In this document: in pieces, positions 10,496 through 49,867 of the stretch
Numbering within the stretch: the first letter of the stretch is position 1
How the letters are laid out: the number at the start of each line of letters is the position of its first letter
Origin: an uncultured bacterium
Lineage (GTDB): Bacteria > Omnitrophota > Omnitrophia > Omnitrophales > Abzuiibacteriaceae
Length of the DNA stretch: 64,000 bases
Direction: 5' to 3'
NCBI GenBank assembly: GCA_964387845.1
Contig: CAYLXA010000002.1
Span: forward strand, 96,001-160,000
The notes under the pieces: model-generated
What the model was told of the DNA's origin: nothing
The model's database searches: none
What the model saw: only the letters and a program-made list of their open reading frames with translations
Program-made: the position numbers and the translations under genes

Positions 10496-10499
10496 AGCT

Positions 10500-13547: not shown

Positions 13548-13550
13548 GCT

Positions 13551-15355: not shown

Positions 15356-15368
15356 AACGGAGAAACAA

Positions 15369-16379: not shown

Positions 16380-16381
16380 CA

Positions 16382-19737: not shown

Positions 19738-19746
19738 AGACGCGTC

Positions 19747-20340: not shown

Positions 20341-20350
20341 GGAGTTTGTT

Positions 20351-21420: not shown

Positions 21421-22224
21421 ATGAACTCATCAACCGTACCCCAAATCAGCATTTTACTTTGTGTTCACAACGGTGAACGAACAGTTGAGCAAGCGATCAA
21501 CAGTCTTCTTGCTCAGACGTTTAAGGATTTTGAGCTCATCGTGATCAATGATGGGTCAACCGATTCTACTCTCGCTCAGTTAGAGAAATTTCAAGACCCA
21601 AGAATCTTCATTCAAAGCATCCCCCGGCGCGGACTCACGAAAGCGCTCAATGTGGGGCTTGCTCAATGCCGCGGTGAATTCATTGCGCGCGTCGATGCTG
21701 ATGATGTTGCGCTGCCTAATCGGCTTGAGCGCCAGGCTGTATTCTTAAATAAGCATCGAAGCGTGGGCGTGATTGGGACCGGGTATGAAATTTTAACTGA
21801 AAACGGTTCGCGAAAACGGGCGACCGTCCCTCTCCTGGAAACCGATTATGAAATCAAGCAAGCTCTTCCGAAATTTAACCCGTTTCACCACGGGTCAGTC
21901 ATGATTCGCCGGCAAATTTTGATCGAAGAGGGCGGCTATGATGAAAATTTTAAACTGGCTCAGGATTATGAACTGTGGCTCAGGCTATCAGGACGTTGCC
22001 AAATGGCTAATATCGGGGAAGTTCTGATGGTGCGCAGAGAGGGCCGAGAAACACTCAAAAAAGAACGCGAACAAAATTGGTACGGAATCAAGGCCAGATT
22101 GAAAGCAATTCAGCGAGGGAATTTAAGTTTTTGGAACGTGATCTACATTCTTCGCCCATTTTTAGTTGTGCTAACACCGGACTGGATAAAATCCGTTATT
22201 CGAAAATTGATCCGAAATGCCTAA
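21421..22224 (+). CDS. glycosyltransferase family 2
   Basis: ISILLCVHNGERTVEQAINSLLAQTFKDFELIVINDGSTDST (GT2 N-terminal signature), DxD-type ARVDADD. Confidence 0.7.
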   Translation: MNSSTVPQISILLCVHNGERTVEQAINSLLAQTFKDFELIVINDGSTDSTLAQLEKFQDPRIFIQSIPRRGLTKALNVGLAQCRGEFIARVDADDVALPNRLERQAVFLNKHRSVGVIGTGYEILTENGSRKRATVPLLETDYEIKQALPKFNPFHHGSVMIRRQILIEEGGYDENFKLAQDYELWLRLSGRCQMANIGEVLMVRREGRETLKKEREQNWYGIKARLKAIQRGNLSFWNVIYILRPFLVVLTPDWIKSVIRKLIRNA

Positions 22225-24412
22225 AATTAAAATCCTATTCATTGATTCTCGCGGAGACTTTGGCGGGGGATCGAACCATCTGCTGTCCATTTTGGAATCT
22301 CTGGATCCGAATAAATTCGACGCATTTGTTGCAGCGCCGTCCGGTCAAGGCAATTCGGAGAAATACCGGAAACTTTGCCGTGCATTCTGTGATATTCCAT
22401 TCCGGAAATTTTCACTCGATGCTTTTCGTGATTTAGTTGAGTTTGCCGAAACCCACCAAGTTCATTTTGTCCATTCCCACGGCCGCGGGGCTGGCATCTA
22501 TAGCCGCTTTATTTTTTGGAAAACCAAAATTCCGGCCATTCATACTTTTCACGGAATTTCTTATGGATTCTTCGGAGCATTCATCGACCGCTTTTTAAAA
22601 AAATGGACAGCCAGGTTTATCCATGTTTCTGATTCTGAGCGGGAAGCCGCGGCTAATCTTGGGGTTTCCGATCCGCGCAGGGCAGTGACCATCTACAACG
22701 GGATCGACTACAGGTGTTTTCAATCGGGTAAAAGCAGAAAAGATGCAAAAGCATCGCTTGGGTTAAGTTTAGATCATTTTGTCATTGGATGCGTGGCTAG
22801 ATTTGATGCTTGCAAGCGCCACCAAGATTTAATCGAAGCCTTGGCTTTATTGACTACTCGCTATCCCAATCTGCGTTTAGTGCTGGCTGGTGACGGCGAA
22901 ACGCGTATAAAGATCGAGCAATTGGCAAATGAATGTGGTGTCTTGGGTAAAGTTTTATTTTTGGGAGAACAAAAAAATCCTCAAATCGTTTATGCGGCAT
23001 CTGATGTATTCGTGCTCGCATCCGAATTTGAGGGCCTTCCTTTAGCGCCTCTGGAGGCGATGGCAGCGGGTTGTGCGGTTGTGTTATCGAATGTGCGCGG
23101 CAACCGGGATGTGGTTCAGGATGAAAAAGACGGCCTGCTATTCGAAGCAAAAAATCCGGAAGCGCTTGCTGCTGCCATTGCGCGGTTAATCGGCAGCCAG
23201 GAGCTGCAGTCAAGACTTATCGAATCGGCCCACAGGACCGTGATTGAGCGATTTTCCATCGATCGCATGCGTGCACAAATTTATGCTTTTTATGAAACCC
23301 TTGTTCCGGTTCCGAAATTCCGGAAAGCCGCGTTGACGCACGACTGGCTTTTTCATATGCGCGGAGGGGAAAAAGTTTTGGAGTCCATCGGAGAACTTTT
23401 TCCGCTTGCGCCCATCTACACGCTTTTTCTCGATCAGAAAAAACTGTCTGAATCCATTAACCGGCACCAGATAATTGCCTCGTGGCTGAACCAGATCCCT
23501 CTCATTGCCGGGTTTTACCGGTATCTACTCCCCCTATTTCCGTTGGTGATGAAGCAATTTGATATCAAAGATCATCTTTTAATCGTTAGCAGCAATCACT
23601 GCGCTGCTAAATCTATCTCGAAGGGGAGGCGCGCGCTACACATTTGCTATTGTCACGCACCAATGCGCTACGCATGGGGTTTTGAATCAGAATATTTTGG
23701 CCGGTTTCCGTTTTTTCTCCGCAGTCTGATCAGGACAGTTCTGAGCTGGCTTCGTTATCGCGATCTCGGATCTAATCCCGGCGTCGATCACTTTATTGCA
23801 AACTCTCAGAATATTAGAAAACGCATCAACCAATACTATGCAAGAGAAGCTGATGTGATTTACCCGCCGATTCAGAAGCGGTTGAAACAGTGTGAGCCTG
23901 CCCAATCGAGCGAGTACTTGATTGTCTCGGCGCTCGTTCCTTACAAACGGATCGATATAGCCGTGCAGGCATTCAACGAATTACAGCTTCCGCTAACAAT
24001 CATCGGGTCCGGCCCCTTATTGCCATCTCTGCAAAAGCAAGCGAAATCGAATATCCGGTTTTTGGGTTGGCAGCCTGATCATGAAGTCGCAAAATATTAT
24101 GCCAGCTGCAAAGCGCTCATTTTTCCGACCGAAGAAGACTTTGGCATGGTTCCGGTTGAGGCAATGATGTACGGAAAGCCGGTGATTGCGTTTGCGTGCG
24201 GCGGCGCGCTTGAAACCGTGATTCCCGGAAAAACAGGACTGCTTTTTGATGCACAAACACCGGAAGCGCTAACCAACGCCGTAAAACAGTTTTCCATTAA
24301 TCAGTTTGACTCTAAAGCCATTACAGCCTATGCTCAGAAATTTAGCGCCGAGCACTTTAATGATGCCGTTATAAAACTTTTGTCGGAATTTACCAATGGT
24401 CAAGCAAACTAA
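22217..24412 (+). CDS. two-module GT4 glycosyltransferase (tandem GT-B domains)
   Basis: 731 aa; first module ends with EFEGLPLAPLEAMAAGCAVV (EX7E), second with EDFGMVPVEAMMYGKPVIAF; ATG overlaps upstream stop. Confidence 0.6.
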   Translation: MPKIKILFIDSRGDFGGGSNHLLSILESLDPNKFDAFVAAPSGQGNSEKYRKLCRAFCDIPFRKFSLDAFRDLVEFAETHQVHFVHSHGRGAGIYSRFIFWKTKIPAIHTFHGISYGFFGAFIDRFLKKWTARFIHVSDSEREAAANLGVSDPRRAVTIYNGIDYRCFQSGKSRKDAKASLGLSLDHFVIGCVARFDACKRHQDLIEALALLTTRYPNLRLVLAGDGETRIKIEQLANECGVLGKVLFLGEQKNPQIVYAASDVFVLASEFEGLPLAPLEAMAAGCAVVLSNVRGNRDVVQDEKDGLLFEAKNPEALAAAIARLIGSQELQSRLIESAHRTVIERFSIDRMRAQIYAFYETLVPVPKFRKAALTHDWLFHMRGGEKVLESIGELFPLAPIYTLFLDQKKLSESINRHQIIASWLNQIPLIAGFYRYLLPLFPLVMKQFDIKDHLLIVSSNHCAAKSISKGRRALHICYCHAPMRYAWGFESEYFGRFPFFLRSLIRTVLSWLRYRDLGSNPGVDHFIANSQNIRKRINQYYAREADVIYPPIQKRLKQCEPAQSSEYLIVSALVPYKRIDIAVQAFNELQLPLTIIGSGPLLPSLQKQAKSNIRFLGWQPDHEVAKYYASCKALIFPTEEDFGMVPVEAMMYGKPVIAFACGGALETVIPGKTGLLFDAQTPEALTNAVKQFSINQFDSKAITAYAQKFSAEHFNDAVIKLLSEFTNGQAN

Positions 24413-25616
24413 AGCAGTTCTTATTTTGGATCAAATAGTACATATTGCGGTAGCGCTTGCTATCATGTCTTATATTTTTTCACGTGGGCTCTTGCTTGTC
24501 GGTATTTATACAGCGCTGATTGCTTGGCTGCTTGGCCGAATCTTAAAGCGAAAGACCATGCTTCCGCACACAGAGTGGAATATTTATCTGGGAATTATTT
24601 TGACTGCACTCATAGCTTCGGTGATCGTAAACGGAAATTGGTACGAAGGAGCGCGGGGCCTGCACAAGTGGCTAAGAGCTCTATTGCTATTTCTATTTGC
24701 CGCTGATTACCTGAGAGATAAGGAAAGCAAAAAAAACGTTTTACTGGCCCTTGGCACCGCGTTTTTGGTTGCTGTACTAGACGGGATTGCGCAGTATTTT
24801 ACTGGCAGAGACTGGATCCGCGGATTTGAGCTTGGGTATGCCGATTTTGTACCGCGCGTGACTTCATCGTTTGGTTATTTTGGCATGTTCGCTTCGTTCC
24901 TGGTCATGGCAGGGCCTATTGTATTTTGGTTTTTTTGGAAAAATTCTTCAAAACTAATCCGTTACGGACTTCTAGGAATTTCAATGTCTTTGGGTCTTCT
25001 AAATCTTTATCTGACTCGGGCGCGCGGTGCGTGGATTTCGCTGGCAGCAATGTTCGTTGCTTATTTGGTAATTACAAAGCGATGGGTCATGATTACGGTG
25101 CTGGCAGTAGCAACCGCTGCATTTTTGTTTTTACTGCCTCGCGACATTGTGCTGCACAGTCCAAAGGAAGTGGGAATCGACAAAACAATTCACCACCGCA
25201 TAATCTTATCCAACGAAGCCCTGACGATTTGGAGAGCGAACCCGCTTTTTGGATGCGGGCTTAATACGTATGTGCAGAATGTGGAAAAATATAATTTACC
25301 AAATTCACATGAGGTTAGAAATTATTACGCTCACAATGGCTACCTTCAATATGGCGCAGAGACCGGTATTGTTGGTTTTTTAGCGCTCGTATTCTTTTTA
25401 TTTCGGTATGGGATGGTGGCTATCTATAAATGCATTACTGAGCGCGCCGCTAGATTTTCTTTGAATCACGCATTATTAGTTTCAAACGGCAGTTTCCTCT
25501 TTTACATGTTTTTTGATACAATTTTTCACAATTTACAGCCATTTTTACTTTTTTGGTTTTTGCTTGGTTGGCATGCGTCTGTATTGCGGTATTCCCATGA
25601 AAACATTACGTCATAG
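24396..25616 (+). CDS. O-antigen ligase / Wzy_C-family membrane protein (WaaL-, Wzy- or PglL-like)
   Basis: ~11 TM helices; conserved LTRARGAWISL and HNGYLQYGAETG motifs of the O-antigen ligase family; start uncertain (alternative ATG 24465). Confidence 0.6.
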   Translation: MVKQTKAVLILDQIVHIAVALAIMSYIFSRGLLLVGIYTALIAWLLGRILKRKTMLPHTEWNIYLGIILTALIASVIVNGNWYEGARGLHKWLRALLLFLFAADYLRDKESKKNVLLALGTAFLVAVLDGIAQYFTGRDWIRGFELGYADFVPRVTSSFGYFGMFASFLVMAGPIVFWFFWKNSSKLIRYGLLGISMSLGLLNLYLTRARGAWISLAAMFVAYLVITKRWVMITVLAVATAAFLFLLPRDIVLHSPKEVGIDKTIHHRIILSNEALTIWRANPLFGCGLNTYVQNVEKYNLPNSHEVRNYYAHNGYLQYGAETGIVGFLALVFFLFRYGMVAIYKCITERAARFSLNHALLVSNGSFLFYMFFDTIFHNLQPFLLFWFLLGWHASVLRYSHENITS

Positions 25617-27024
25617 ACGGAAGCGGAAAGGCGACTTTTTATCTTCTGTTATATTCCTAGCGTCCGATATTGCATCAATCTCAGCCGCGTTTGTTGTAGC
25701 TTATTTGGCGCGGTTCGACTGGCTCCAAAATTTCTTTCAAAAAGAGCCGCCCGACTTTAACCGGTACTTGTATGTGCTACCGGTAGTGATTGCCATCTTT
25801 ATCGCCACATTCCGGCAAAAGCAAATTTACGTTTTTGATACGCTTCGGAGGCGCCTCGATGAGATCGGTATTCTTTTTGCTTCGGTCGTTATTGCCGGCA
25901 TCCTGCTGATGGCACTCACGTTCTTGTACCGTGATTTTTCATATTCAAGAACATTTTTTGCCCTTCATTTAATCTTGTCATTTGTATTAATTTGTTTTTT
26001 TAGACATTTAGCCTATTGGCTGGATGGTGCAGTTAGATTAGCGACCGGAACCCGGATTCGGATTCTGGTAATGGGCGCTAACCGCAGCGCGCGTCAAATT
26101 ATTCGCCGAATTAACAAGAGCTACCGGAATCGATATGAGGTTGTCGGTGTATTGACAGGAGGGAAATCTCACGGTGAAAAGCATTTTGAACAGGCGCCGA
26201 TTGTCGGAAGTCTTGAGGATGTCTTTAAAAAAATGCCGCAGCTAAACGCCGATGAAGTGATTTTGACGGTTTCCGATTTTCCGGATGAAAAACTAACCGA
26301 GCTTTTCCTGAAATGCGAGAATGAAATGGTTTCATTTCTTAAAATTCCAGATTTATTCGGCATTTTCACAAGCGGAGTGGATATTCATTATATTGACAAC
26401 GTCCCTTTGATCGGGATTAAAAAATCGCCGCTCGATAAATTTGTGAACCGGCTTTTTAAGAGGTCTTTTGACCTTGCCACATCCCTGGTCGGCGTTGTTT
26501 TGCTCTCACCGGTTTATGTGGTGATTGCCATATTGGTAAAATGCACGGACGGCGGGCCGATTTTGTATCGCCAGGACCGGACCGGGATGGACGGGCGGAG
26601 TTTTTTTATGTATAAATTCAGAACCATGCGCGTAGATGCCGAATCGAAGTCAGGGCCCGTATGGGCAGTGGCTGACGATCAGCGGGTGACATCGGTCGGG
26701 AAATTTTTACGCCGCTTTAATCTCGATGAATTGCCGCAGTTTTTTAACGTTTTGCGCGGAGAAATGAGTATCGTGGGGCCCCGTCCGGAGCGCCCTCACT
26801 TTGTAGGGAAATTCCGCGACCAAGTGCCTCGATACATGGCGCGTCACAAAATCAAATCCGGAATCACAGGATGGGCACAAGTAAACGGCTTTCGCGGTAA
26901 CACGTCTATCGCGGAGCGCACCAAATACGACCTCTATTATTATGAAAATTGGTCGTTATTCTTAGACATTAAAATCATTCTCCTAACTTTGTTTTCACCG
27001 AAAGGTTTTCAAAACGCGTATTGA
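25597..27024 (+). CDS. polyprenyl-phosphate sugar phosphotransferase (WbaP/EpsB-like initiating transferase)
   Basis: N-terminal TM helices, central Rossmann-like domain, C-terminal bacterial sugar transferase domain ([25 protein letters not shown]); start chosen at MKTLRHRRK. Confidence 0.75.
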
Positions 27025-27025
27025 T

Positions 27026-27793
27026 ATGTCCAAAACCCCGATCACCATTGCTGTCATGGCAAAAAACGAAGAAAAAAGATTGCCGGCATGCCTCGAGTCT
27101 GTGCGCTGGGCAGATGAAATTCTGATTCTGGATGACGAAAGTACGGACCGTACCGTTCAAATTGCAGAATCTTTCGGTGCTCGCGTGATCAAGCGAAAAT
27201 TGGATGTTGAGGGCCGTCACCGCAATTTTCTATATGCACACGCCAAAAACGAATGGGTCTTGAGTTTGGATGCCGATGAGCACGTAACGCCCGAGCTCGC
27301 TAAAGAAATTGACGAAGTAATCAAGAAAAACGACCCGGGATTCGCCGGTTATTCCATGCCGATGCAGATTTTTATCGGAACCCGATGGATCCGAGGAGCG
27401 GGTTATTACCCATCCGCGCGCTTAAAAATGTTTCGCCGCGATAAATTCAAATACGAGGAAACCGGTGTTCATCCGCGCGTTTTTCTCGATGGGAAGTGTG
27501 GACGCTTAAAAGGAGAGCTGCTTCATTATTCTTTCCGGGATTTCTCGCATTTTATTGCCAAATTCAACCGGGAAACCGATTTGGAAGCCGTGAAATGGCT
27601 TGAAGATAAGCGTAAAATGAGTTTTGGGCTTGCGTTTTACAAGTCGACCGACCGTTTTTTCCGCGCATTCATTACAAAAAAGGGTTACCGCGATGGTTTT
27701 CTCGGATTTATTCTGTCTTGTTTTTCATCCTGGTATCAACTTGTGACTTATGCCAAATACTGGTTCGCAAAGCAAAACCAAGCGCCCCAATAA
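27026..27793 (+). CDS. glycosyltransferase family 2 (LPS-core-type)
   Basis: ITIAVMAKNEEKRLPACLESV...ILILDDESTDRT. Confidence 0.6.
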   Translation: MSKTPITIAVMAKNEEKRLPACLESVRWADEILILDDESTDRTVQIAESFGARVIKRKLDVEGRHRNFLYAHAKNEWVLSLDADEHVTPELAKEIDEVIKKNDPGFAGYSMPMQIFIGTRWIRGAGYYPSARLKMFRRDKFKYEETGVHPRVFLDGKCGRLKGELLHYSFRDFSHFIAKFNRETDLEAVKWLEDKRKMSFGLAFYKSTDRFFRAFITKKGYRDGFLGFILSCFSSWYQLVTYAKYWFAKQNQAPQ

Positions 27794-28343
27794 TTTTCAA
27801 AATGTTGTCTTCGTTGACCGCGACGGCGTCATTAATTATGACAATCTTGCCGGTTACATTACGCAATGGAAATATTTTAAGTTCATTCCGGGGTCGCTCA
27901 AGGCTCTCGCTCAGTTAACGAAAGCAGGGTTCAAGATCGTGATCATCTCCAACCAAGCCGGAATCGGTGACGGTGTTTACCCTAAAAAAGCACTGATCGA
28001 TATCACGTGGAGAATGAAACGCAAGATGAAGCAATCGGGAGTTGAAGTCGTTGGAATTTATTACTGTTTACATGGCAAAAAAGCCGGCTGCAAATGCCGC
28101 AAACCCGAAACCGGGCTTTTCAAAAAAGCCGCGCGGGATTTTCGTTTTAACAAAAAGAAAACTTATTTTATCGGTGATAAAATTTCTGATTTATTGGCAG
28201 GAAAGCGTTTTGGTCTGCGGACCGGTTTTGTGTTAACCGGTCACGGAAAACATGAAGCTCCGAAAATTCCCGTGCGCCTCAAACCGGATGTTCGCGGCGC
28301 TAATTTACTCCAGTTAACCCGCCGTTTATTGAAATCTTTATGA
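27750..28343 (+). CDS. gmhB: D,D-heptose 1,7-bisphosphate phosphatase, HAD-IIIA (GmhB-like)
   Basis: HAD motif I VFVDRDGVIN, zinc-binding CLHGKKAGCKCRKPETGL, motif GDKISD; 44-nt overlap with upstream gene so start uncertain. Confidence 0.6.
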   Translation: MPNTGSQSKTKRPNNFQNVVFVDRDGVINYDNLAGYITQWKYFKFIPGSLKALAQLTKAGFKIVIISNQAGIGDGVYPKKALIDITWRMKRKMKQSGVEVVGIYYCLHGKKAGCKCRKPETGLFKKAARDFRFNKKKTYFIGDKISDLLAGKRFGLRTGFVLTGHGKHEAPKIPVRLKPDVRGANLLQLTRRLLKSL

Positions 28344-29455
28344 AGATTTTTGTTTTGTATTCCTGCGCCGGTGAAGGACATAAAAAAATTGCGGAAGCGG
28401 CGATCCAAGAATTAGAAAGGCAGAATCTCGGCGCCATTCATGGATTCGATGCTTTTGAAAAAACATTGCCTGTATTTCGGGACGCCTATCCGGCTGTTTA
28501 TTTCTATCTGGTTAAATATGCCACGCAGTTTTGGAGTTTTCTTTATCATGCATCAGACTATCCGCTGGTAGCGCGCCTTTTAGTGCCGTTCCGGCGGCTG
28601 TGGAACCGGTTTCATTCGATCGGATTACGGAAATACTTACGGGAAGAAAAACCGGATATTATGATTGTGACGCATTTTTATGCTGCAGAAGTCATTGCTT
28701 CCGCAAAATTATGCGGTGAAATCTCCGGCAAATTAATTACTATTATTACCGACGCAATGCCGCATGCGTTTTGGATCAATGACGGCACGGATTATTATTG
28801 GGTCATGTGTGAGGAAAATAAAAAAGTTCTCATGCAGCGGGGCGTTTCGGAAAATTGTATCCGAGTCGGCGGCATTCCGGTCCGCCACGAATTTGCGGAG
28901 CCTGCGGATCGCCGCGCATTAAGGCAAAAACACGGACTTCAGCCGGATCGGTTTACGATATTGTTTACGAGCGGTAGTTTTGGATTAGGCCCGACCGAAG
29001 AGCTCTTAAAAGCTCTGGAAGATTTTAAAGACCGCATTCAAGCGGCGGTTGTTTGCGGTAGAAATCAGGCGCTCTATGATCATCTGACAAAGCAAACCTG
29101 GCAATATCCTGTCATTGTAACGGGTTTTACCGATGTGATGCACGAATGGATGAGCGTGGCGGATATCATGATCGCAAAGTCGGGCGGTTCGACGATGTGC
29201 GAGGGGCTTGCCAAAACTCTGCCGATGCTGATTAGTGCGCCAATTCCGGGACAAGAGACCCGAAATCGCGATTGGCTTTTTGCGCACCAGGCTGCTGTCG
29301 GAATTGAATCGGCAGATGATGTGAAGAATTTAGTGCGGACACTTTTGTCGGATCCTAAAAAATTAACCGAATTGCACAACAATATACAAAAAATTGCAAA
29401 ACCAGCCGCTGCAGCGGATTTGACAGCGTTTGTCTCCCAAATTTCCAAATCATGA
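28340..29455 (+). CDS. GT28-family glycosyltransferase (MGDG synthase/UgtP/MurG-like)
   Basis: MKIFVLYSCAGEGHKK N-terminus and C-terminal AKSGGSTMCEGLAKTLPMLI typical of GT28. Confidence 0.55.
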   Translation: MKIFVLYSCAGEGHKKIAEAAIQELERQNLGAIHGFDAFEKTLPVFRDAYPAVYFYLVKYATQFWSFLYHASDYPLVARLLVPFRRLWNRFHSIGLRKYLREEKPDIMIVTHFYAAEVIASAKLCGEISGKLITIITDAMPHAFWINDGTDYYWVMCEENKKVLMQRGVSENCIRVGGIPVRHEFAEPADRRALRQKHGLQPDRFTILFTSGSFGLGPTEELLKALEDFKDRIQAAVVCGRNQALYDHLTKQTWQYPVIVTGFTDVMHEWMSVADIMIAKSGGSTMCEGLAKTLPMLISAPIPGQETRNRDWLFAHQAAVGIESADDVKNLVRTLLSDPKKLTELHNNIQKIAKPAAAADLTAFVSQISKS

Positions 29456-30165
29456 CAGATCCAAGATTGAGCAAGCTGATTAAATCCATCGAATCTAAGT
29501 TTGAAGCCATGCGCACCGATGGCGTTCAAATATTAACACTGCCGAAAGTAGGCACTGGGCCAGTTGCTGAGAAATCGGAGTCAGTCCAAACCGCCTCGGC
29601 CACATCACCAAAAAATATTTTGATTCAATTCAAGAATGAAGTCAGTCAATGCACAAAGTGCGGTGAGCTGGCATCGAGCCGCCAAAACGTTGTTTTTGGT
29701 GCGGGGAATGCAAAAGCAAAATTAGTTTTTGTCGGCGAAGCCCCCGGACGGGATGAAGATGAGCAAGGCTTGCCATTTGTGGGGCTTGCGGGCCAGCTTT
29801 TAACCAAAATGATCGAAGCGATCGGGATGAGCCGCAACGAAGTCTTTATTTGCAATGTATTGAAATGCCGGCCTCCGCAAAACCGGAACCCGATGCCGGA
29901 AGAAATCATTAATTGCTCGCCTTATCTGTGGCGCCAACTTGAATTAATTCAGCCGAAAATGATTTGCGCGCTGGGTAAATTTGCCGCACAAACCTTACTT
30001 AATTCCACTGCGTCAATTTCACAGCTGCGCGGCACGATTCACGACTGCCGCGGGTTTAGATTGATTTGCACGTTTCATCCCGCTTACTTACTGCGCAATC
30101 CGGCTGACAAAAGGAAGGCGTGGGAAGATTTGAAGCGGGTCAAAGCCGAATTGGTTGAAGCTTAA
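29452..30165 (+). CDS. uracil-DNA glycosylase, family 4
   Basis: Fe-S Cys CTKCGELASSRQ, GEAPGRDEDEQGLPFVGLAGQLL, FHPAYLLRNP. Confidence 0.8.
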   Translation: MTDPRLSKLIKSIESKFEAMRTDGVQILTLPKVGTGPVAEKSESVQTASATSPKNILIQFKNEVSQCTKCGELASSRQNVVFGAGNAKAKLVFVGEAPGRDEDEQGLPFVGLAGQLLTKMIEAIGMSRNEVFICNVLKCRPPQNRNPMPEEIINCSPYLWRQLELIQPKMICALGKFAAQTLLNSTASISQLRGTIHDCRGFRLICTFHPAYLLRNPADKRKAWEDLKRVKAELVEA

Positions 30166-30179
30166 AGAAAGATTCCGCG

Positions 30180-32222
30180 GTGAACACACTTTTCGAAGAA
30201 GCAAAAAAAACCGACCTACAACTGATCCAAGTTGCCATTCCACTGGCTGTCGATGACCCGTTTACCTATGCGGTGCCTCATGAATTCTCCGGAAAAATAA
30301 AACCCGGCGTCCGCGTCCGAATTCCGTTTAAAAACCGCGACATCGTCGGCTATGTGGTTGGAATTTCAGAATCCGAACCTACAGCCAAGATTAAAAATGT
30401 CCTTGAGGTTTTAGATGAATCTCCTGTGATTTCCGAACATTTTCTTGAGTTGTCAAAGTGGATCAAAAATTATTATTTTTCCAGTTGGGGAGAAGCCATT
30501 CAAACCTGCATTCCGAAACAATACCGGCAAGCCAAGACATTAAAAGAAAAGAAGAGCAAAGCAGAAATCGCAAAAGATTCTGCGGTGGCCTTTAAAGATT
30601 TTTCACTCACCAGCGAGCAGAAGAATGCATTGGAGAAGATTTTGTCGCTTGTGCGTTCAGAAAAGTTTTCCGAGATTGTTCTTCTGGGCGTGACCGGGAG
30701 CGGAAAAAGTGAAATTTACATTCGCGCAATGAAGGAGGCAATTGCGAGCGGAAAATCGGCGATTTGTCTGGTTCCCGAAATTGCGCTCACCGAACAAATC
30801 GAGCGGTTTTTTGAAGGCCATTTTGGCGATCAATTGGAAATTATTCACAGCAAATTGTCAGACGGTGAACGTTGGCAAGCCTGGGAACGCATCCGCCGCG
30901 GTGAGAAAAAAGTCGTATTGGGTGTTCGCTCTGCGATTTTTGCGCCCATTCATCACTTAGGCCTGATTATTATTGATGAGGAGCAGGAGCCTTCGTACAA
31001 ACAAGATCAAACACCACGTTACCATGCGCGTGAAGTGGCAAGGTGGCGCGCTGAGCATCTCGGAGCAACGCTCGTCATGGGCAGCGCAACGCCTTCGATG
31101 GAAGTACTGCATGAAGCGCAAACCGGCCGCATTCACATGATGGAACTTTCCGGGCGAATCGGAAACCGGCCCATGCCCGAAATCCAAATTATTGACCTCA
31201 AACAAGCGCAGCAAATTTCACGCGAGAAGGTTATTGTTTCATCAACGCTTGCACAAGCCGTTCAATCAGCGCTTGAGAAAAAAGAAGGCGTTATGCTGAT
31301 GCTGAATCGGCGTGGCTTTTCAACACAGGCGCAGTGCCTGCAGTGCGGAAAAGCGATTATGTGCCGGCATTGCGATGTCGCGCTCACATTTCATCAAGCT
31401 GATCAGAGGCTCTTGTGCCATTACTGTAATTACGCGATCGGCGAGTCGGATAAGTGCGTATATTGCCAACACCCGCTTTTCCGGTATATGGGTGCCGGCA
31501 CGGAAAAAGTAGAGAGCGAAGTCGCACGCCTCTTTCCGCAGGCAAGAGTCGCGCGGCTCGATTCGGATACCGCCCGCAAAAAGGGAAGCCATCAGGCGAT
31601 TTTGGCCAAATTTAGAGCGCGCGAAATCGATATCTTGGTCGGCACGCAGATGATTGCCAAAGGCTTCGATTTTCCGCACGTCAGTCTCGTGGGCGTCATT
31701 TTGGCGGACACGGCACTTTTACTGCCGGATTACCGCTCCAGCGAAAAAACATTTCAACTGGTCACGCAGGTGGCGGGCCGTTCAGGCCGGGGCGAGCAAG
31801 CCGGTAAGGTAATGGTCCAAACGTTCTCACCTTTTCATTACAGCATCCAATGCGCTAAAAATCACGACACCAAAGGTTTTTACACTGAAGAACTTAAGCA
31901 TCGGCAGGAGTTTTCTTATCCGCCGTTTGTTAAATTAATCAACATCATTATCCGGTCAAAGACTGAAAAGAAAGTTATAGAACAGGCAGAAATTTTGAAA
32001 TCAGAAATCTCCAAGTCTTTGTCCAATGCTCAAACTGAGATTTTGGGCCCGGCGCCGCTGCCGTTCTATAGGTTAAGAGGCCATTTTCGCTGGCATCTAA
32101 TGATAAAAGTCAAAAACCAGACCGAGCATCCGCTGCTCGCAATTCGCCAGGCGATTCAATCAGCTAAAAAAGTCAGCAAAGTCTTTATGGCGGTTGATAC
32201 GGACCCGGTCTCCATTCTCTAG
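30180..32222 (+). CDS. priA: primosomal protein N' (PriA helicase)
   Basis: GTG start; Walker A GVTGSGKSEIY, DEEQE, Cys-rich zinc-binding insert CLQCGKAIMCRHCDVALTFH...CHYCNY...CVYC, helicase C motifs. Confidence 0.9.
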   Translation: MNTLFEEAKKTDLQLIQVAIPLAVDDPFTYAVPHEFSGKIKPGVRVRIPFKNRDIVGYVVGISESEPTAKIKNVLEVLDESPVISEHFLELSKWIKNYYFSSWGEAIQTCIPKQYRQAKTLKEKKSKAEIAKDSAVAFKDFSLTSEQKNALEKILSLVRSEKFSEIVLLGVTGSGKSEIYIRAMKEAIASGKSAICLVPEIALTEQIERFFEGHFGDQLEIIHSKLSDGERWQAWERIRRGEKKVVLGVRSAIFAPIHHLGLIIIDEEQEPSYKQDQTPRYHAREVARWRAEHLGATLVMGSATPSMEVLHEAQTGRIHMMELSGRIGNRPMPEIQIIDLKQAQQISREKVIVSSTLAQAVQSALEKKEGVMLMLNRRGFSTQAQCLQCGKAIMCRHCDVALTFHQADQRLLCHYCNYAIGESDKCVYCQHPLFRYMGAGTEKVESEVARLFPQARVARLDSDTARKKGSHQAILAKFRAREIDILVGTQMIAKGFDFPHVSLVGVILADTALLLPDYRSSEKTFQLVTQVAGRSGRGEQAGKVMVQTFSPFHYSIQCAKNHDTKGFYTEELKHRQEFSYPPFVKLINIIIRSKTEKKVIEQAEILKSEISKSLSNAQTEILGPAPLPFYRLRGHFRWHLMIKVKNQTEHPLLAIRQAIQSAKKVSKVFMAVDTDPVSIL

Positions 32223-34931: not shown

Positions 34932-36047
<1,116 letters not shown>

Positions 36048-36084: not shown

Positions 36085-36381
36085 ATGCTGAAGTTCCGCC
36101 TTCAAGTAATGAGCCTGAAAAGAATCTTGTTTGACGCTGACGTCGAACAAGTTCATATTTTCGGCGATGAGGGCGAGTACGATCTTTTGGCCTATCACTA
36201 CCCTATTATTGGCGCCTTGCCGGAAGGCGAGGTCCACATCAAAGACCACAAAAACATCCCGCTTCGGGCAGGTGTGGCGCTTTTTCGTCAGAACCGCTGC
36301 CTGATTATTATCGAAGAAAAGGATGCGGAAGGCGCACCAACCGACAAGCCTTCCATCAACCCAATAGGCAAGAAAGACTAG
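36085..36381 (+). CDS. ATP synthase epsilon-subunit-like beta-sandwich protein (orphan atpC-like)
   Basis: 98 aa; pattern LQVMSLKRILFDADVEQVHIFGDEGEYDLLAYHYPIIGALPEGEVHI matches AtpC N-terminal domain consensus (V.S...F.G.V..V...G.EGE.GIL.gH.P....L..G...I); good RBS AAGGTGGGG; not in an atp operon. Confidence 0.4.
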   Translation: MLKFRLQVMSLKRILFDADVEQVHIFGDEGEYDLLAYHYPIIGALPEGEVHIKDHKNIPLRAGVALFRQNRCLIIIEEKDAEGAPTDKPSINPIGKKD

Positions 36382-37158: not shown

Positions 37159-37186
37159 TTGATTTTCCGCTAAACTCGCGTATAAT
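37159..37186 (+). promoter_or_regulatory. near-consensus sigma70 promoter TTGATT-N16-TATAAT
   Basis: TTGATT 37159-37164, TATAAT 37181-37186; predicted TSS ~37193. Confidence 0.5.
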
Positions 37187-37209
37187 TACATTACTTTTTG
37201 GAAAACTCG

Positions 37210-37359
37210 ATGGAAAACACTCTGAACCTAAAACACTTTAAAAGCAGTGTAAAACCCGCGACAGGCGCCGTGTCGATGGCGTGGTCTATTATGGGCCACG
37301 GCTATTGTCATCGCCGCAAGCTCGTGGGCTTGAAGGAGGTTCAAGCGTTACTATCGTAA
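37210..37359 (+). CDS. hypothetical 49-aa micro-protein (alternative reading of the same unit)
   Basis: ATG..TAA ORF MENTLNLKHFKSSVKPATGAVSMAWSIMGHGYCHRRKLVGLKEVQALLS; only weak SD (GGAA) 8-11 nt upstream. Confidence 0.2.
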   Translation: MENTLNLKHFKSSVKPATGAVSMAWSIMGHGYCHRRKLVGLKEVQALLS

Positions 37360-37395
37360 AGTAGTTTAAAGTAGTAAAAGCAAAATCAACTTAAG

Positions 37396-37427
37396 CCCAT
37401 GGCTGAAATTCAGTCATGGGTTTTTTT
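37396..37427 (+). terminator. Rho-independent terminator
   Basis: CCCATGGCTG-aaatt-CAGTCATGGG (10-bp stem with one G.U) followed by TTTTTTT. Confidence 0.7.
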
Positions 37428-37445
37428 ATTTTCAGGAGGTTTCAG

Positions 37446-37661
37446 ATGAGACAGACAGCAAAGCTGGTCCCAAAAGCCGGCTTCTTTACGGTCAACAAGG
37501 ACCCGGTAAAATTGACGGCCCTTTTATACCTGCGGGAAGCGCTTTTGGCGGAGCAGTATGAAGAGTGCGCCGAATTTGTGCGGATCGCGGAAGAATTCGG
37601 TGCGCACGGGTTTGAAATCCAGAATTTACTGGAAGACCCGAGGCGCATGCCGAAGGCGTGA
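37446..37661 (+). CDS. small UVR-motif (UvrB/UvrC-like) domain protein, hypothetical
   Basis: 72 aa; LTALLYLREALLAEQYEECAEFVRIAEE resembles UVR motif (E.YE.AA..RD.I); RBS CAGGAGG; track start 37416 lies inside the terminator hairpin so 37446 chosen. Confidence 0.3.
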   Translation: MRQTAKLVPKAGFFTVNKDPVKLTALLYLREALLAEQYEECAEFVRIAEEFGAHGFEIQNLLEDPRRMPKA

Positions 37662-37846
37662 TTTTGGTGCCGGTGTTATGACTTTAACTAATCGCAACTT
37701 GAGATTCCTTGTTCGCCATTGGTTTTTGAAGGGGACGGGTGTGTTCGGGTTTTGTAAAATAGCGCTAGTGTTTATCGGAAGTGAACTATATAATCAAAAA
37801 CAGAAATTATTTTTTACCATTTATTCTATTGACTGCACGATGCCGT

Positions 37847-38221
37847 ATGAATCAAAAAATCGCTCTTTTCCTTTTATTGTCTGTGATTACAAGCTGTTCT
37901 GGAGGGCATGTTCTCGCTAAATGGGCGGTCGTTCAAGCGGAAGACACGTTTGCAAAAGCGTCCGATATGCGCCATGATAAGAACAAGCACGCTGGGCGCA
38001 TCCGCCTTTACGAACGTGCCTGCGCGCAGTTTGTTAAGGCTTATGAATTAGATCCGGGCGTATTTACGCTTTACCGCATTGAAAACGCAATCACCGCCTG
38101 TGCGTGGGCAGAAAACTATGCCGCAAAAGAAATCATGCAGAATTTTGAATTTGATTACATTGATCAACATCCGACCGAAGCCGAATACGGCGATGCCATG
38201 CCGCCCATAAGTTTTGAGTAA
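37847..38221 (+). CDS. hypothetical lipoprotein
   Basis: Signal peptide MNQKIALFLLLSVITSCSG with lipobox-like LSVITSC... Cys; start at internal ATG 37847. Confidence 0.4.
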   Translation: MNQKIALFLLLSVITSCSGGHVLAKWAVVQAEDTFAKASDMRHDKNKHAGRIRLYERACAQFVKAYELDPGVFTLYRIENAITACAWAENYAAKEIMQNFEFDYIDQHPTEAEYGDAMPPISFE

Positions 38222-38223
38222 TT

Positions 38224-38916
38224 ATGCCGCCAACGACTCAGAAAAACTTCAAATTATCACCCTCAACGCTAAATTTATTTCTAGACTGTCCAAGGTGTTT
38301 TTGGCTCGAGAAAGTGAAGGGGATCAAGCGGCCGCGCGGCATTTTTCCGTCGCTTCCGGGCGGCATGGACCGCGAAATCAAAAATCATTTTGATATTTTC
38401 CGCGCAAAAAAGAAACTCCCGCCGGAATTGTCATCACCGGTTTTTACGGGCATAAACCTTTTTGATGCTCAAAAACAGCTCGACTTGTGGCGCAATTGGC
38501 GCACCGGTTTGGAATATCATGACGAAGGCGGTAATGTGTTGAGCGGTGCGCTCGATGATCTGCTCGTCCAAGGCGATCTCTACATTCCGTTTGATTACAA
38601 AACGAAAGGCTCGCCGACGACCGAAGAAGATGCGGTCAAATATTATCAAAATCAATTAGACTGTTACACGCTCATGCTGGAAGCCAATGGAATGAAAAGT
38701 GCCGGATTCGGAATTCTTTTGTATTATTCGCCAAAATTAGTTTCAGAAAACGGAAGTGTTGCATTTCAAACACAACCGATTAAAATAGAAACAAAGTCGG
38801 AGCGCGCCAAATCAACCTTTGCGCGCGCCCTTAATTTAGTGAAAGGTCCAATCCCTTCGGTTAATTTTAATTGCGAGTACTGCACCTGGAACAACAAGCT
38901 GCGTGCCGCCAACTGA
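38224..38916 (+). CDS. PD-(D/E)XK nuclease with Cys4 cluster (Cas4/AddB-nuclease-domain-like), standalone
   Basis: N-terminal SPSTLNLFLDCPRCFWL (Cas4-type start with CxxC), core GDLYIPFDYKTKG (D...D/ExK), C-terminal CEYCTW; 3-nt gap to upstream gene. Confidence 0.45.
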   Translation: MPPTTQKNFKLSPSTLNLFLDCPRCFWLEKVKGIKRPRGIFPSLPGGMDREIKNHFDIFRAKKKLPPELSSPVFTGINLFDAQKQLDLWRNWRTGLEYHDEGGNVLSGALDDLLVQGDLYIPFDYKTKGSPTTEEDAVKYYQNQLDCYTLMLEANGMKSAGFGILLYYSPKLVSENGSVAFQTQPIKIETKSERAKSTFARALNLVKGPIPSVNFNCEYCTWNNKLRAAN

Positions 38917-38929
38917 GTAAAGGTGTTTT

Positions 38930-39742
38930 ATGAAACCCAATTTTGTTCCGTTTATTATTGCATTCATTGTCATCACATTTATCGCTTCGGGCTGCTCGGT
39001 CAAAGTGATCGAGGACGGCGAAGCGGGCGTCAAGGCAACTCTCGGAAAAATCGAAGACAAGCCACTGGGGCCGGGGTGGTACATTTTCTTTCCGATTGTT
39101 TCTTGGATTGAAAAATGGAACGTAAAAACACAAGAAATAAAAGAAACCGCCAGCGTTCCTTCATCGGAAGGCCTCATTTCCACGCTGGACGTTTCGGTGC
39201 TTTACAATACATCGATTGATAAGGTCGTGTCTGTCCGCACAACAACAGGCTACAATTATAAAGAAATCATCTTGGAGCCCTTTGTCCGCGAGTCAATCCG
39301 CAATGTCGTGAGCGGCTATGAAGTGAAAGCGCTTTTTAGCGAAAAAAGCAGGAAGGAAATCGGAGAAAAAATTCTTCAGTTTCTGAGAGAAAAATTAGAA
39401 AGCCGCGGCATCACGGTCCAGGACGTTCTGTTGCGTGATGTGCGCCTGCCGCAAGCGTTTAGCCAAAGCATCGAAATCAAGCTCAAAACCGAGCAAGAGG
39501 CCCTTCAAAAGGAATTTGAGCTGCAAAAAGCCAAGAAAGACGCTGAAATTGAAGTTGCGCGCGCAGAAGGCGTTGCCAAAAGCAACCGAATCATTGCCGA
39601 CAGCATCAATGAAAACTATCTTCGGTATAAATGGATTCAAGGCCTTCAAAACACGAGCTCTCAAGTGGTTTATGTGCCGACCGAAGCAAACCTTCCGATT
39701 TTAGAGGCAAATCGGTGGAAAGCCGCGGCTGAAAAGAAATAA
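38930..39742 (+). CDS. SPFH/Band-7 (prohibitin/HflKC-like) domain lipoprotein
   Basis: Signal peptide + IASGCS lipobox; SPFH core and coiled-coil region (EIKLKTEQEALQKEFELQKAKKDAEIEVARAEG). Confidence 0.65.
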   Translation: MKPNFVPFIIAFIVITFIASGCSVKVIEDGEAGVKATLGKIEDKPLGPGWYIFFPIVSWIEKWNVKTQEIKETASVPSSEGLISTLDVSVLYNTSIDKVVSVRTTTGYNYKEIILEPFVRESIRNVVSGYEVKALFSEKSRKEIGEKILQFLREKLESRGITVQDVLLRDVRLPQAFSQSIEIKLKTEQEALQKEFELQKAKKDAEIEVARAEGVAKSNRIIADSINENYLRYKWIQGLQNTSSQVVYVPTEANLPILEANRWKAAAEKK

Positions 39743-39747
39743 TATCA

Positions 39748-40302
39748 ATGAACAAAAAAGCTTTGGTGATACTGGCAAATGGTTGCGAAGAAATCGAAGC
39801 CGTTACTCCGATCGACGTCCTGCGCCGTGCAGGCGTTGAAGTAACGGTTGCAGGCCTGGATAGCAAGGTCATTACGGGCGCTCAAGGTATTAAATTCGAG
39901 ACAGATTTATTGTTGAAAGATTACAAAGTAACGCCGGATGCCATTATTTTACCCGGCGGTGCCCAGGGTGCGCGGAATTTAAGCCAATCCAAAGAAGTTT
40001 TGGAAGTCGTAAAATACTTGCACGATCAAAAGCGGCTCGTGGCTGCCATTTGCGCGTCTCCGGCTGTTGCATTATCGCCGACTGGGATTTTGGCAAACCG
40101 CCAGGCCACTTGCTATCCCGGCTTCGAGAAGGAATTCCCGAGAAATGTTATTTTTAAAGAAGACCGCGTCGTGATTGATCAAAATATCATTACGAGCCGC
40201 GGCCCCGGATCAGCGCTTGAGTTTGCACTTAAAATTGTCGAAGAATTGGTATCCAAAGAAAAGGCGCAGACACTCAGGGAAGGGATGCTTGTGAAGGTAT
40301 GA
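39748..40302 (+). CDS. DJ-1/PfpI-family protein (ThiJ/YajL-like)
   Basis: KALVILANGCEEIEA, nucleophile elbow VAAICASPAV, ITSRGPGSALEF. Confidence 0.8.
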   Translation: MNKKALVILANGCEEIEAVTPIDVLRRAGVEVTVAGLDSKVITGAQGIKFETDLLLKDYKVTPDAIILPGGAQGARNLSQSKEVLEVVKYLHDQKRLVAAICASPAVALSPTGILANRQATCYPGFEKEFPRNVIFKEDRVVIDQNIITSRGPGSALEFALKIVEELVSKEKAQTLREGMLVKV

Positions 40303-40421
40303 TTACCGAGAGCAAATGTCCGGCCTGCAATTCGGAGTTGGTGATAAAAAAAGCAAAATTCATCTGCTCGGTCTGTCATTTAATTGTTGAAACTTGCTGC
40401 GACGGCGGAAAGTGTGATTAA
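40299..40421 (+). CDS. 40-aa zinc-ribbon micro-protein (not in ORF track)
   Basis: MITESKCPACNSELVIKKAKFICSVCHLIVETCCDGGKCD: CPxC...CxxC ribbon plus CC..C tail; ATGA overlap with DJ-1 stop and TAATG overlap with next gene start. Confidence 0.4.
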   Translation: MITESKCPACNSELVIKKAKFICSVCHLIVETCCDGGKCD

Positions 40422-40690
40422 TGGCTAAATTTTTTGACCGGCACTTCAAAACAGCGCTTGTGGTCCTTGCCGCGGTTTTTCTGTGGATTTATTACGTAAG
40501 CAGCCAAAACGGGCGTTATCAGGTAGAGCGCTACGATACGGATATTCATATTTTTGACACTCAGCGCGGCATTTACTATAAAACCACTTCCAGCGGTTCT
40601 GTTGATGTCATCGATCCGATCGGCGGGTCTGTTAAGTTCAAAAAACTTCCCTTTATGATTAAAGAGCGGAAATTCATTGCCCGCGAATAG
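40421..40690 (+). CDS. hypothetical small membrane-anchored protein
   Basis: 89 aa, N-terminal TM helix ALVVLAAVFLWIYYV; translationally coupled to zinc-ribbon ORF. Confidence 0.35.
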   Translation: MAKFFDRHFKTALVVLAAVFLWIYYVSSQNGRYQVERYDTDIHIFDTQRGIYYKTTSSGSVDVIDPIGGSVKFKKLPFMIKERKFIARE

Positions 40691-40746
40691 TTTGATAAAC
40701 CCCCTGGAAAGCCCTCTTTTTATCTGACCCAAATCCTCCGAACGGC

Positions 40747-40775
40747 TTGTAACTTCGCGCAGTCAGCGCTATAAT
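40747..40775 (+). promoter_or_regulatory. sigma70-like promoter TTGTAA-N17-TATAAT upstream of glgB
   Basis: TTGTAA 40747-40752, TATAAT 40770-40775; RBS AGAGAGGGA before ATG 40816. Confidence 0.45.
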
Positions 40776-47497: not shown

Positions 47498-48691
47498 ATG
47501 AATAAGCAGACCATTTCAGATATCGATGTCAAAGGCAAGCGCGTTATTATCCGTGCCGATTTCAATGTGCCTCTTGATAAGTCGGGAAACATTACAGATG
47601 ATGCCCGCATTGCCAAAACCATTCCAACAATCAAAAATTTGCTCGAGCGGAAAGCAAAAGTTGTTTTAATGTCTCACTTGGGTCGCCCAAAAGGGAAGCC
47701 GGAGGCAGAGTTCAGCCTGGCGCCCGTCGCCAAACGGTTAACCGAACTTTTGAAGCAACCTATCGAACTAACGCCGGACTGCGTCGGGCCGGAAGTCGAA
47801 TCAAAAGTGAAAAACCTGAAAGATGGCCAAGCGCTTCTGCTTGAAAATTTGAGATTTCACAAAGAAGAAGAAAAGAACGATCCCGCATTCTCCAAACAAC
47901 TCGCTTCGCTTGCTGATATTTATGTCAATGACGCATTTGGCGCCGCGCACAGGGCACATGCATCAACGGAAGGTATCGCGAAGCATTTGCCGGCTGTTGC
48001 AGGCTTTTTACTTGCAAAGGAAATTGAATATTTCAGTAAGGCGCTCGAAAACCCCGACCGGCCGTTTGTAACGATCCTGGGCGGAGCCAAAGTTTCGGAC
48101 AAGATTAAAGTCATTGAAAACCTGCTTTCAAAAGTAGACGGGTTGTTGATCGGCGGCGCCATGGCATACACGTTTTTAAAATCGCAGGGACTGGCAATCG
48201 GAAAATCCAAACTCGATGAGCCCGGCATCGATATTGCCAAACAGATTTTAGCGAAGGCAAAGCAAGAAAAAATAGAAATTCTGCTTCCTGTCGATCATGT
48301 CGTGTCGCAGGAGATTTCTGAAAATGCCCCTACTAAAGTTGTCGACGAGATTCCTGAGGGCTGGATGGCGGTCGATATCGGTCCTAAAACCGTTCAGGAA
48401 TTTTCAAAGCGTTTATCCGCCTCCAAAATGGTGATTTGGAACGGCCCGGTGGGCATATTTGAAATGAAACCATTCGCTAACGGAACCAAACAACTTGCCG
48501 ATACATTAAGCAAGTTAAAAGCAACTACCATTATCGGCGGCGGAGACACGGCTGCAGCGGTTAAAGAATTTGGATACGAAGAAAAAATGTCGCACGTCTC
48601 AACCGGCGGCGGCGCATCGCTTGAATTTCTAGAAGGAATTGAACTTCCGGGCGTTCGTGCGCTGAACAACAAATCGAAAGCAAAGGTTTAA
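47498..48691 (+). CDS. pgk: phosphoglycerate kinase
   Basis: [25 protein letters not shown] motifs. Confidence 0.95.
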
Positions 48692-48692
48692 T

Positions 48693-49478
48693 ATGAATCG
48701 TCCTCTGATTGTCGGAAATTGGAAAATGTACAAGAACATTCCGGAAACGGTTTCGCTCATTAACAGCATCAAAGCCGGCGTTCATTCCGTGACGAATGTC
48801 GATATTGTCGTCTGTCCGCCGTTCACCGCGCTCGCATCAGCGTCTACGGCCTTAAAAGATAGCAAGATTGATTTGGGTGCTCAGGATATGTATCACGAAA
48901 CGGAAGGCGCATTTACGGGCGAGGTTTCGCCGTTGATGCTAAAAGATGTGGGTTGTCGGTATGTCATCTTAGGCCATTCGGAACGCCGCACGATTTTCAA
49001 AGAACCGGACGAGCTGATTGAAAAGAAGCTGCTCGCTGCAATGAAGTACAGTTTTATTCCGATTTTATGCATTGGTGAAACCTTGGAAGAGCGGGAAGCC
49101 CGCAAAGCGTTCGAAGTCGTGAAGCGTCAGTTTGACATCGCCATGGTCCACATTGATCCCAGCGAAATGGAAAGGATCGTCATTGCCTATGAACCCGTGT
49201 GGGCGATTGGTACCGGGCGCACAGCAACGCCGGAACAGGCTGAACAGATGCATTCTTATATCCGAAGATTGCTGCATGAAAAGCACGGTGACGACATCGC
49301 GCAAAAAGTAAAAATTCTTTACGGCGGCAGCGTGAAGCCGGATAATATTGCACAGCTCATGGAACGTCCGAATTTGGACGGCGCTCTTGTCGGCGGCGCT
49401 TCCTTGAAAGCCGAATCATTCATTCAAATCGTTAAAAATTCCGTTGCGCTTGAAACCCAGGAGAAATCCTCATCATGA
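48693..49478 (+). CDS. tpiA: triosephosphate isomerase
   Basis: GNWKM, ILGHSERR, AYEPVWAIGTG. Confidence 0.95.
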   Translation: MNRPLIVGNWKMYKNIPETVSLINSIKAGVHSVTNVDIVVCPPFTALASASTALKDSKIDLGAQDMYHETEGAFTGEVSPLMLKDVGCRYVILGHSERRTIFKEPDELIEKKLLAAMKYSFIPILCIGETLEEREARKAFEVVKRQFDIAMVHIDPSEMERIVIAYEPVWAIGTGRTATPEQAEQMHSYIRRLLHEKHGDDIAQKVKILYGGSVKPDNIAQLMERPNLDGALVGGASLKAESFIQIVKNSVALETQEKSSS

Positions 49479-49867
49479 CCGTTCTTATTACAGCGATTCA
49501 TATTCTCGTTTGCTTGGTTTTAATTTTAGTAATTCTATTGCAAGCCGGGCGCGGAGCTGGTTTGAGCTGGGGTTCTTTCGGCGGCGACCCGCAATCCGTA
49601 TTCGGAACCAAGTCAGCTACATTCTTAAAAAAAGCAACCACCGTGTCTGCGATTTTATTTTTATTAACCTGCATCGGGCTTAATATTATCGAGACGCATA
49701 AGTCAAAATCACTTTTTTCGACCGGTAATACGCAAGTCGACATCGAAAAAATCAAGCAGGCATTAGAGCAAGTGAAAGCCGAAGAAGCGAAAAACCCCCA
49801 GACCGCTACGCCGGCAGCCGGCGCGACAACGGAAACACCGGCCGCTGAAACCAAATCCGAAAACTAA
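49475..49867 (+). CDS. secG: preprotein translocase subunit SecG with Ala/Thr/Glu-rich C-terminal tail
   Basis: ILVCLVLILVILLQAGRGAGLS SecG signature; ATGA overlap with tpiA. Confidence 0.85.
   Translation: MTVLITAIHILVCLVLILVILLQAGRGAGLSWGSFGGDPQSVFGTKSATFLKKATTVSAILFLLTCIGLNIIETHKSKSLFSTGNTQVDIEKIKQALEQVKAEEAKNPQTATPAAGATTETPAAETKSEN

Follow-up and report, generated by a model that had tools for sequence, protein, structure and literature searches.

Uber-operons of streamlined bacterial genomes are long stretches in which unrelated core genes follow each other on a single strand, their reading frames overlapping or abutting; the gene order is maintained inside a lineage and is increasingly lost with distance. 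Solo Cas4-like nucleases of family PF12705, i.e., those outside of CRISPR systems, were described as a class by Hudaiberdiev et al. 2017 (PMC5704561), and uncharacterised roles in defence or repair were proposed for their genes. Here, we analysed a locus that can be compared with both: a cluster of six genes within a 64,000-nt stretch of DNA (positions 96,001 to 160,000 of contig CAYLXA010000002.1, hereafter the window) from an uncultured member of Candidatus Omnitrophota. The cluster encodes, in this order, a predicted lipoprotein (LIPO), a Cas4/RecB-like nuclease (NUC), an SPFH/Band 7 lipoprotein (SPFH), a DJ-1/YajL-type protein (DJ-1), a zinc-ribbon micro-protein (ZNR) and a small protein with one transmembrane helix (TM89) (Table 1). 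A first-pass annotation had proposed that these genes could work together as a stress, defence or membrane-quality-control module. Our analysis favours another reading, to which we assign a probability of roughly 80%: the six genes form an incidental, lineage-specific operon in a long collinear array of housekeeping genes, and its members act independently. The locus shares the above properties of the uber-operons, and no difference from them was seen.

Conservation of the gene order was assessed in 80 species-level loci encoding NUC, including flanks of up to 10 kb, which were scored by tblastn with all window genes and by de novo clustering of open reading frames (ORFs). All DJ-1 counts are those from tblastn, which also saw this gene in four loci (L008, L009, L010 and L021) where the greedy gene caller overlooked it. 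The two closest lineages (L085–L087 and L081/L082) were found by exact-protein look-up. The six-gene order was observed in none of the 80 loci. Homologues of SPFH, ZNR and TM89 were not found near NUC in these loci, except for remote SPFH paralogues (19–28% identity) in L065 and L063, and LIPO occurred near NUC in a single one, L018 (38–39% identity). The complete order LIPO-NUC-SPFH-DJ-1-ZNR-TM89-GlgB was present in L085–L087, the NUC of which is 80% identical to that of the window. In L081/L082 (NUC 79% identical, two independent assemblies) the order is the same minus SPFH, and NUC and DJ-1 are 9 nt apart. Thus, SPFH is an indel even within the closest relatives. The neighbourhood analysis that the first-pass annotation had suggested as a check consequently spoke against a recurring module, with an order confined to the closest relatives and variable even there.

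A different arrangement is shared by about 22 of the 80 loci, namely the collinear order CdaA-YbbR-PdxJ-NnrD-radical SAM-NUC-cupin-DUF6941-DJ-1-CYTH-EF-P, a 12-gene block of a large Omnitrophota clade (e.g., L002, 5480–13076). In this block, NUC and DJ-1 are near each other, not adjacent, and unrelated housekeeping genes are interleaved. The neighbours of NUC in the remaining loci are unrelated, and no gene family recurs beside it. The radical SAM gene directly precedes NUC in 19 loci and also occurs in its vicinity in L057 and L058, which are more distant. In L083 (9615–10711) and L084, with a NUC of 68% identity, a DUF1318 gene overlaps the NUC start and IspH/LytB follows NUC. A small protein gene directly upstream of NUC exists in the window and in L018 as well (LIPO in both), probably by coincidence.

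From the proximity of NUC and DJ-1 one might argue that these two genes alone belong together, for instance in the repair of nucleic acids with glycation or other carbonyl damage, with DJ-1 deglycating them and NUC processing the damaged ends. Proteins of the DJ-1/YajL family have been reported as nucleotide deglycases, a claim that is contested. The two genes are 0.75–1.7 kb apart, with DJ-1 downstream, in 22 of the 80 loci and likewise close in the window's own lineage, and in L081 they are direct neighbours. However, a cupin and a DUF6941 gene lie between them in the large clade, and at least 40 loci with enough flanking sequence have no DJ-1 near NUC. Furthermore, conservation extends equally to the whole 12-gene stretch, with pdxJ, nnrD, efp and other genes, which is the signature of inherited synteny. 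A repair pair of NUC and DJ-1 is, therefore, quite improbable.

The tight spacing of the six genes, which had first drawn attention to them, turned out to be ordinary for this DNA. All six ORFs were confirmed on the + strand (37847–40690) and none is spurious. The successive junctions measure 2, 13, 5, −4 and −1 nt, the last two being an ATGA and a TAATG overlap. The first-pass annotation had given 3 and 14 nt for the first two, an immaterial shift by one, and its other three junctions stand. Among the 61 same-strand junctions of the window (hand-corrected gene list), the median distance is 4 nt; 41 of them measure at most 15 nt, 23 are overlaps and only 8 are gaps of 50 nt or more. With its five tight junctions, the six-gene run is the fourth longest in the window, after runs of eight (21421–32222), seven (11748–21397) and six junctions (4608–11723), and 59 of the 62 crude gene calls are located on the + strand. 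Tight packing is the norm for this genome and nothing special to the cluster; since an overlap of stop and start codons is the default state, it carries no information on a shared function. The base composition is flat across the window, and the GC skew is positive over most of it.

Table 1. Genes of the six-gene cluster and the promoter-like sites flanking it (positions in the window).
Feature	Position	Strand	Description
−10-like hexamer TATAAT	37789–37794	+	In the 185-nt spacer, about 50–55 nt before LIPO
LIPO	37847–38221	+	124-aa predicted lipoprotein; signal peptide ends in ITSC (lipobox)
NUC	38224–38916	+	230-aa stand-alone PD-(D/E)XK nuclease, Cas4/RecB-like superfamily
SPFH	38930–39742	+	270-aa prohibitin-type SPFH/Band 7 lipoprotein, lipobox ASGC; variable insert at the locus
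DJ-1	39748–40302	+	184-aa DJ-1/YajL-type protein (glyoxalase III/deglycase family)
ZNR	40299–40421	+	40-aa Cys-rich zinc-ribbon micro-protein, CPAC...CSVC...CC...C
TM89	40421–40690	+	89-aa protein with one N-terminal transmembrane helix
Promoter-like site TTGTAA-17-TATAAT	40747–40775	+	Upstream of glgB; downstream boundary of the unit

The cluster is set apart by its boundaries: no intergenic gaps in the window are larger than the two that flank it, which measure 185 nt on the LIPO side and 125 nt on the TM89 side, compared with at most 13 nt inside. In the upstream spacer, an alignment of the window with two related lineages (L081 and L085) revealed that the hexamer TATAAT is invariant while its flanking bases vary, and the adjacent block CTAGTGTTT (37765–37773), which precedes it, is likewise invariant. 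The hexamer is the probable promoter of the six-gene unit; owing to its weak −35 region, it was not flagged by the consensus promoter scan. At the other end, the site upstream of glgB scored 10 of 12 in the same scan, and both of its hexamers are invariant in L081 and L086. In both gaps, these islands stand out from otherwise diverged spacer DNA. A strong terminator-like hairpin (37393–37423; 14 pairs followed by a T-run) is found further upstream of LIPO. No terminator was detected after TM89, and read-through into glgB is therefore possible. Given promoter-like islands in both flanking gaps and internal gaps of no more than 13 nt, a single transcription unit is plausible, and the translationally coupled unit of the first-pass annotation was in this respect a reasonable inference.

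Does such a unit amount to a dedicated system? In the module as proposed, NUC would be the effector, whereas SPFH and the small membrane proteins would serve as sensor or anchor. Its tight coupling as a discrete unit between promoter-like sites could be taken in this sense, as could the Cas4-like match of NUC in PADLOC (E 1.7e-9) and the defence or repair roles considered for solo Cas4-like genes (PMC5704561). The search of PADLOC-DB v2 with seven proteins (the six plus orf81), a check that the first-pass annotation had suggested, returned no defence system. Only NUC matched, weakly and to generic Cas4 models, with E 1.7e-9 at best, and one further match at E 0.07 was noise. No CRISPR or tandem repeats were detected in the 64-kb window, nor did it contain matches to Rfam (gathering thresholds) or tRNAs (ARAGORN). 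The annotated neighbourhood of the collinear relatives is free of cas genes, and the genes within ±10 kb are housekeeping genes. By collinearity with L081, those upstream encode PriA, Def, Fmt, GT4, GAPDH, an orphan ATP-synthase-epsilon-like protein, CdaA and two small ORFs; those downstream encode GlgB, GH57, GH77, PGK, TIM and SecG. These surroundings represent core metabolism and not a defence island. A literature search on gene density and operons in Omnitrophota yielded nothing specific to the six-gene locus. In addition, the 50–80% identity of the NUC homologues to the query would fit a housekeeping gene better than one engaged in an arms race. Together with the absence of SPFH from the same junction in the sister lineage and the unrelated contexts of its orthologues (see below), these results make a dedicated six-gene module very improbable.

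NUC belongs to the PD-(D/E)XK superfamily, family PF12705 (Cas4/RecB-like), which it matched with 49.8 bits (cut-off 22). Its scores for the Cas4 families were below the respective cut-offs (PF01930, 14.7 vs 22.7 bits; TIGR00372, 26.9 vs 65 bits). Among 22 aligned sequences, the invariant columns comprise D111/D112, D124-Y-K126 and Q144...Y148, as well as the four cysteines C22, C25, C217 and C220, which form a 2+2 arrangement (CxxC...CxxC) lacking a third C-terminal Cys. A further invariant segment, KRPRGIFPSLPxGMDR, has no counterpart in the solved structures. For Cas4 we take the layout to be one N-terminal plus three C-terminal cysteines (CX2CX5C). Identification of NUC as a CRISPR-associated Cas4 was thus rejected, on the grounds of the sub-threshold family scores, a Cys layout other than 1+3 and the lack of CRISPR repeats. 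The label of an Fe-S Cas4-like PD-(D/E)XK nuclease in the first-pass annotation holds for the nuclease fold, while the Fe-S cluster is unproven, considering the 2+2 layout. A sequence search with the NUC profile against solved structures reached only E 0.0035, to a Cas4 (4r5q), so that a fold search was needed to place the protein. The AlphaFold model (pLDDT 88) resembled best the nuclease domain of AdnAB, Cas4, MGME1, lambda exonuclease and RecE.

In several respects NUC corresponds to the solo Cas4-like class of PF12705 (PMC5704561): its PD-(D/E)XK core shows the motifs D...D-x-K and QxxxY, both termini carry cysteines, and it stands alone without cas genes or a CRISPR array nearby, originates from an environmental bacterium with a small genome, and has a fold matching those of Cas4, the nuclease domain of AdnAB, MGME1 and lambda exonuclease. 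It differs from that class in being neither fused to nor adjoining a helicase, and from Cas4 in the 2+2 cysteines, the low Cas4 scores and the invariant segment. We found 1802 homologues, whose identity to the query is 50–80% over the sampled lineages, in metagenome-assembled genomes (MAGs) that carry labels such as Omnitrophota, Elusimicrobia, Auribacterota, Aerophobetes and Planctomycetia; nearly all of the named ones are Candidatus Omnitrophota MAG proteins. Judging from motifs and model, NUC most likely functions in DNA end-processing or repair. It is unlikely, taken as one joint claim, that NUC represents a mostly vertically inherited, stand-alone Cas4/RecB-like family with a rearranged 2+2 Cys metal site, that it is a core enzyme of DNA end-processing or repair, and that its recurrent location near DJ-1 stems from a genuine link to the repair of carbonyl-damaged nucleic acids.

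The first-pass labels of the next two proteins were borne out. SPFH matched PF01145 with 111.6 bits (cut-off 23.6), covering profile positions 1–173 of 176, and its best solved relatives in a PDB sequence search were prohibitin-2 and prohibitin-1, followed by QmcA, erlin and stomatin. The score against the HflC equivalog TIGR01932 was well under the cut-off (40.4 vs 134.4 bits). Its 1806 homologues carry the source name "prohibitin family protein" and are about 70% identical across many contigs. Three orthologues with 69–79% identity lie in unrelated contexts, one adjoining TauE/PFK, one adjoining a VWA protein and one inside a purine-biosynthesis operon. With its full-length Band 7 domain and membrane tether, SPFH resembles prohibitin, HflK/C, QmcA and stomatin. 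It is unlike them in its anchor, a lipobox predicted from the sequence instead of a transmembrane hairpin, and unlike known SPFH systems in that neither NfeD nor FtsH is encoded at the locus as a partner. There is a single SPFH copy in the window, without a second, paired SPFH gene. It most likely acts as a membrane scaffold.

DJ-1 reached 195 bits against TIGR01383 (DJ-1 family glyoxalase III; cut-off 131.25) and 162 bits against PF01965, and it could be aligned over its full length to DJ-1 beta, human DJ-1 and YajL. Its nucleophile-elbow Cys, within AICASP, aligns with AICAAP/AICAGP of DJ-1 beta and human DJ-1, and the ICA(S/G)P and EE(I/M)E motifs are aligned as well, as is the Glu which we take to be DJ-1 Glu18. 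By these alignments DJ-1 is a full-length DJ-1/YajL orthologue, with no notable difference from the TIGR01383 proteins except that, in this lineage only, the 40-aa ZNR overlaps its stop codon. Its most likely role would be the detoxification of reactive carbonyls.

The three small proteins differ in how far they can be traced. LIPO had no match in Pfam, NCBIfam or PADLOC, and the search for homologues among 5.8 billion clusters yielded only five proteins, hence no functional lead. It is lineage-specific, with an identity of 60–64% in L081–L087. An upstream GTG start (37781) was rejected in favour of the ATG at 37847, because the latter gives a lipoprotein signal peptide, agrees with the relatives and with a 100% database match of 124 aa, and leaves the conserved −10 hexamer outside of the gene, whereas the longer ORF would contain it.

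ZNR is 87.5–90% identical at the amino-acid level in L081, L082 and L086, and the ATGA overlap with DJ-1 is kept in relatives. Its Pfam matches were sub-threshold Zn-ribbon matches only, and homologues were restricted to the two sister lineages, with none in the 80 wider loci. In comparison with two relatives, 22 of 29–30 nucleotide differences affect third codon positions, with 18–19 synonymous vs 5–6 amino-acid changes. TM89 is 81–82% identical in relatives, with 49–52 of 70–74 nucleotide differences at third codon positions and 38–41 synonymous codon changes against the same number of relatives. Following its helix is a short beta-rich tail with an (I/V)FDTxxGxxY motif, and this layout is shared by a small family of proteins of around 80 aa, with 35 representatives (E≤1e-3 in 1.84 billion proteins), mostly 60–100 aa in length. 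The TAATG overlap between ZNR and TM89 is specific to the window; the corresponding spacer in relatives has about 14 to 75 nt. The crude gene caller preferred an antisense ORF of 104 aa (40418–40732) over TM89, which we rejected as spurious, as it is 42% conserved compared with 82% for TM89 and the substitutions occur at third positions of the + frame. The substitution patterns indicate that ZNR and TM89 are real genes under purifying selection. Genes of this size may escape gene callers; indeed, the gene calls of L081 and L086 omit the Zn-ribbon. Separately, we observed that the FDxxxGxWY-like motif of TM89 matches 4–5 repeated stretches in the proteins P0271 (501 aa) and P0250 (532 aa). The former has FG-GAP/VCBS-like repeats; in the latter, the match looks like a low-complexity or TPR-like repeat and may be spurious.

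SPFH genes are commonly paired with the gene of a small membrane protein, NfeD. One could, therefore, imagine that SPFH cooperates with ZNR and TM89 in a non-canonical version of the SPFH-NfeD pair, given that all three are in one unit and that TM89 combines one transmembrane helix with a short beta-rich tail. However, neither ZNR nor TM89 has an NfeD match in Pfam (nor has any other of the six proteins or orf81), and the immediate neighbours of SPFH are NUC and DJ-1, the latter separating it from the two small genes. Both small genes are retained at 82–90% identity in L081/L082, without SPFH at the locus, and the SPFH orthologues elsewhere have no such neighbours. Such a partnership is very improbable. 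The same observations count against all three alternatives discussed here: SPFH is an indel, the neighbourhoods vary and the surroundings are housekeeping genes.

In the favoured reading of an incidental operon, six functionally unrelated genes would be transcribed from the promoter upstream of LIPO and translated with coupling, since almost all genes of this streamlined, near-single-stranded genome abut or overlap. The backbone would be the inherited synteny cdaA...NUC...DJ-1, located between gap and glgB-GH57-malQ-pgk-tpiA-secG, on which small lineage-specific genes and SPFH would have been gained or from which they would have been lost. Each product would then act independently, NUC on DNA ends or in repair, SPFH as a scaffold and DJ-1 on carbonyls, which are the individual biochemical roles that we infer. 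Several points weigh against this reading. LIPO, ZNR and TM89, i.e., three of the six, are without known function, which makes a shared role formally possible; the proximity of NUC and DJ-1 (about 0.8–1.7 kb) in two NUC sub-clades could reflect more than inherited synteny; LIPO is located directly upstream of NUC in one further lineage, L018; and co-transcription, like the promoter itself, is deduced from sequence features.

Some observations on the neighbouring genes may be added. In many bacteria, gap and pgk-tpiA-secG form one operon. Here, gap (34944–36047) and pgk-tpiA-secG (47498–49867) are about 11 kb apart, separated by cdaA, then the six-gene cluster and finally the glycogen genes glgB, GH57 and GH77; L081 has the same layout. 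The orphan epsilon-like protein of 98 aa (36085–36381) consists of only the N-terminal beta-sandwich of ATP synthase epsilon (PF02823, 40.8 bits); its gene has a 0-nt gap to cdaA and no other ATP synthase genes nearby, and the protein is 93–94% identical in relatives, far above CdaA (65–67%). After cdaA, a promoter-like TTGATT-16-TATAAT (37159–37186), a 53-aa ORF (37198–37359; 69–74% identical in relatives, no family match) and the aforementioned hairpin together have the look of a self-contained mini-gene. Between that hairpin and the LIPO promoter region lies another small ORF (37416–37661, probable start 37446) of 71–81 aa, which is 75–79% identical in relatives and had no match in Pfam, NCBIfam or PADLOC.

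These results dispose of a false lead: where genes are densely packed on a single strand, gaps of a few nucleotides and ATGA or TAATG overlaps are no sign of a functional module. The only mildly interesting part of the cluster is NUC, a representative of a widely conserved, unstudied solo Cas4-like family that is widespread in MAGs labelled Omnitrophota and several other candidate phyla. This family is a possible biochemical target for studies of DNA repair in uncultured lineages.

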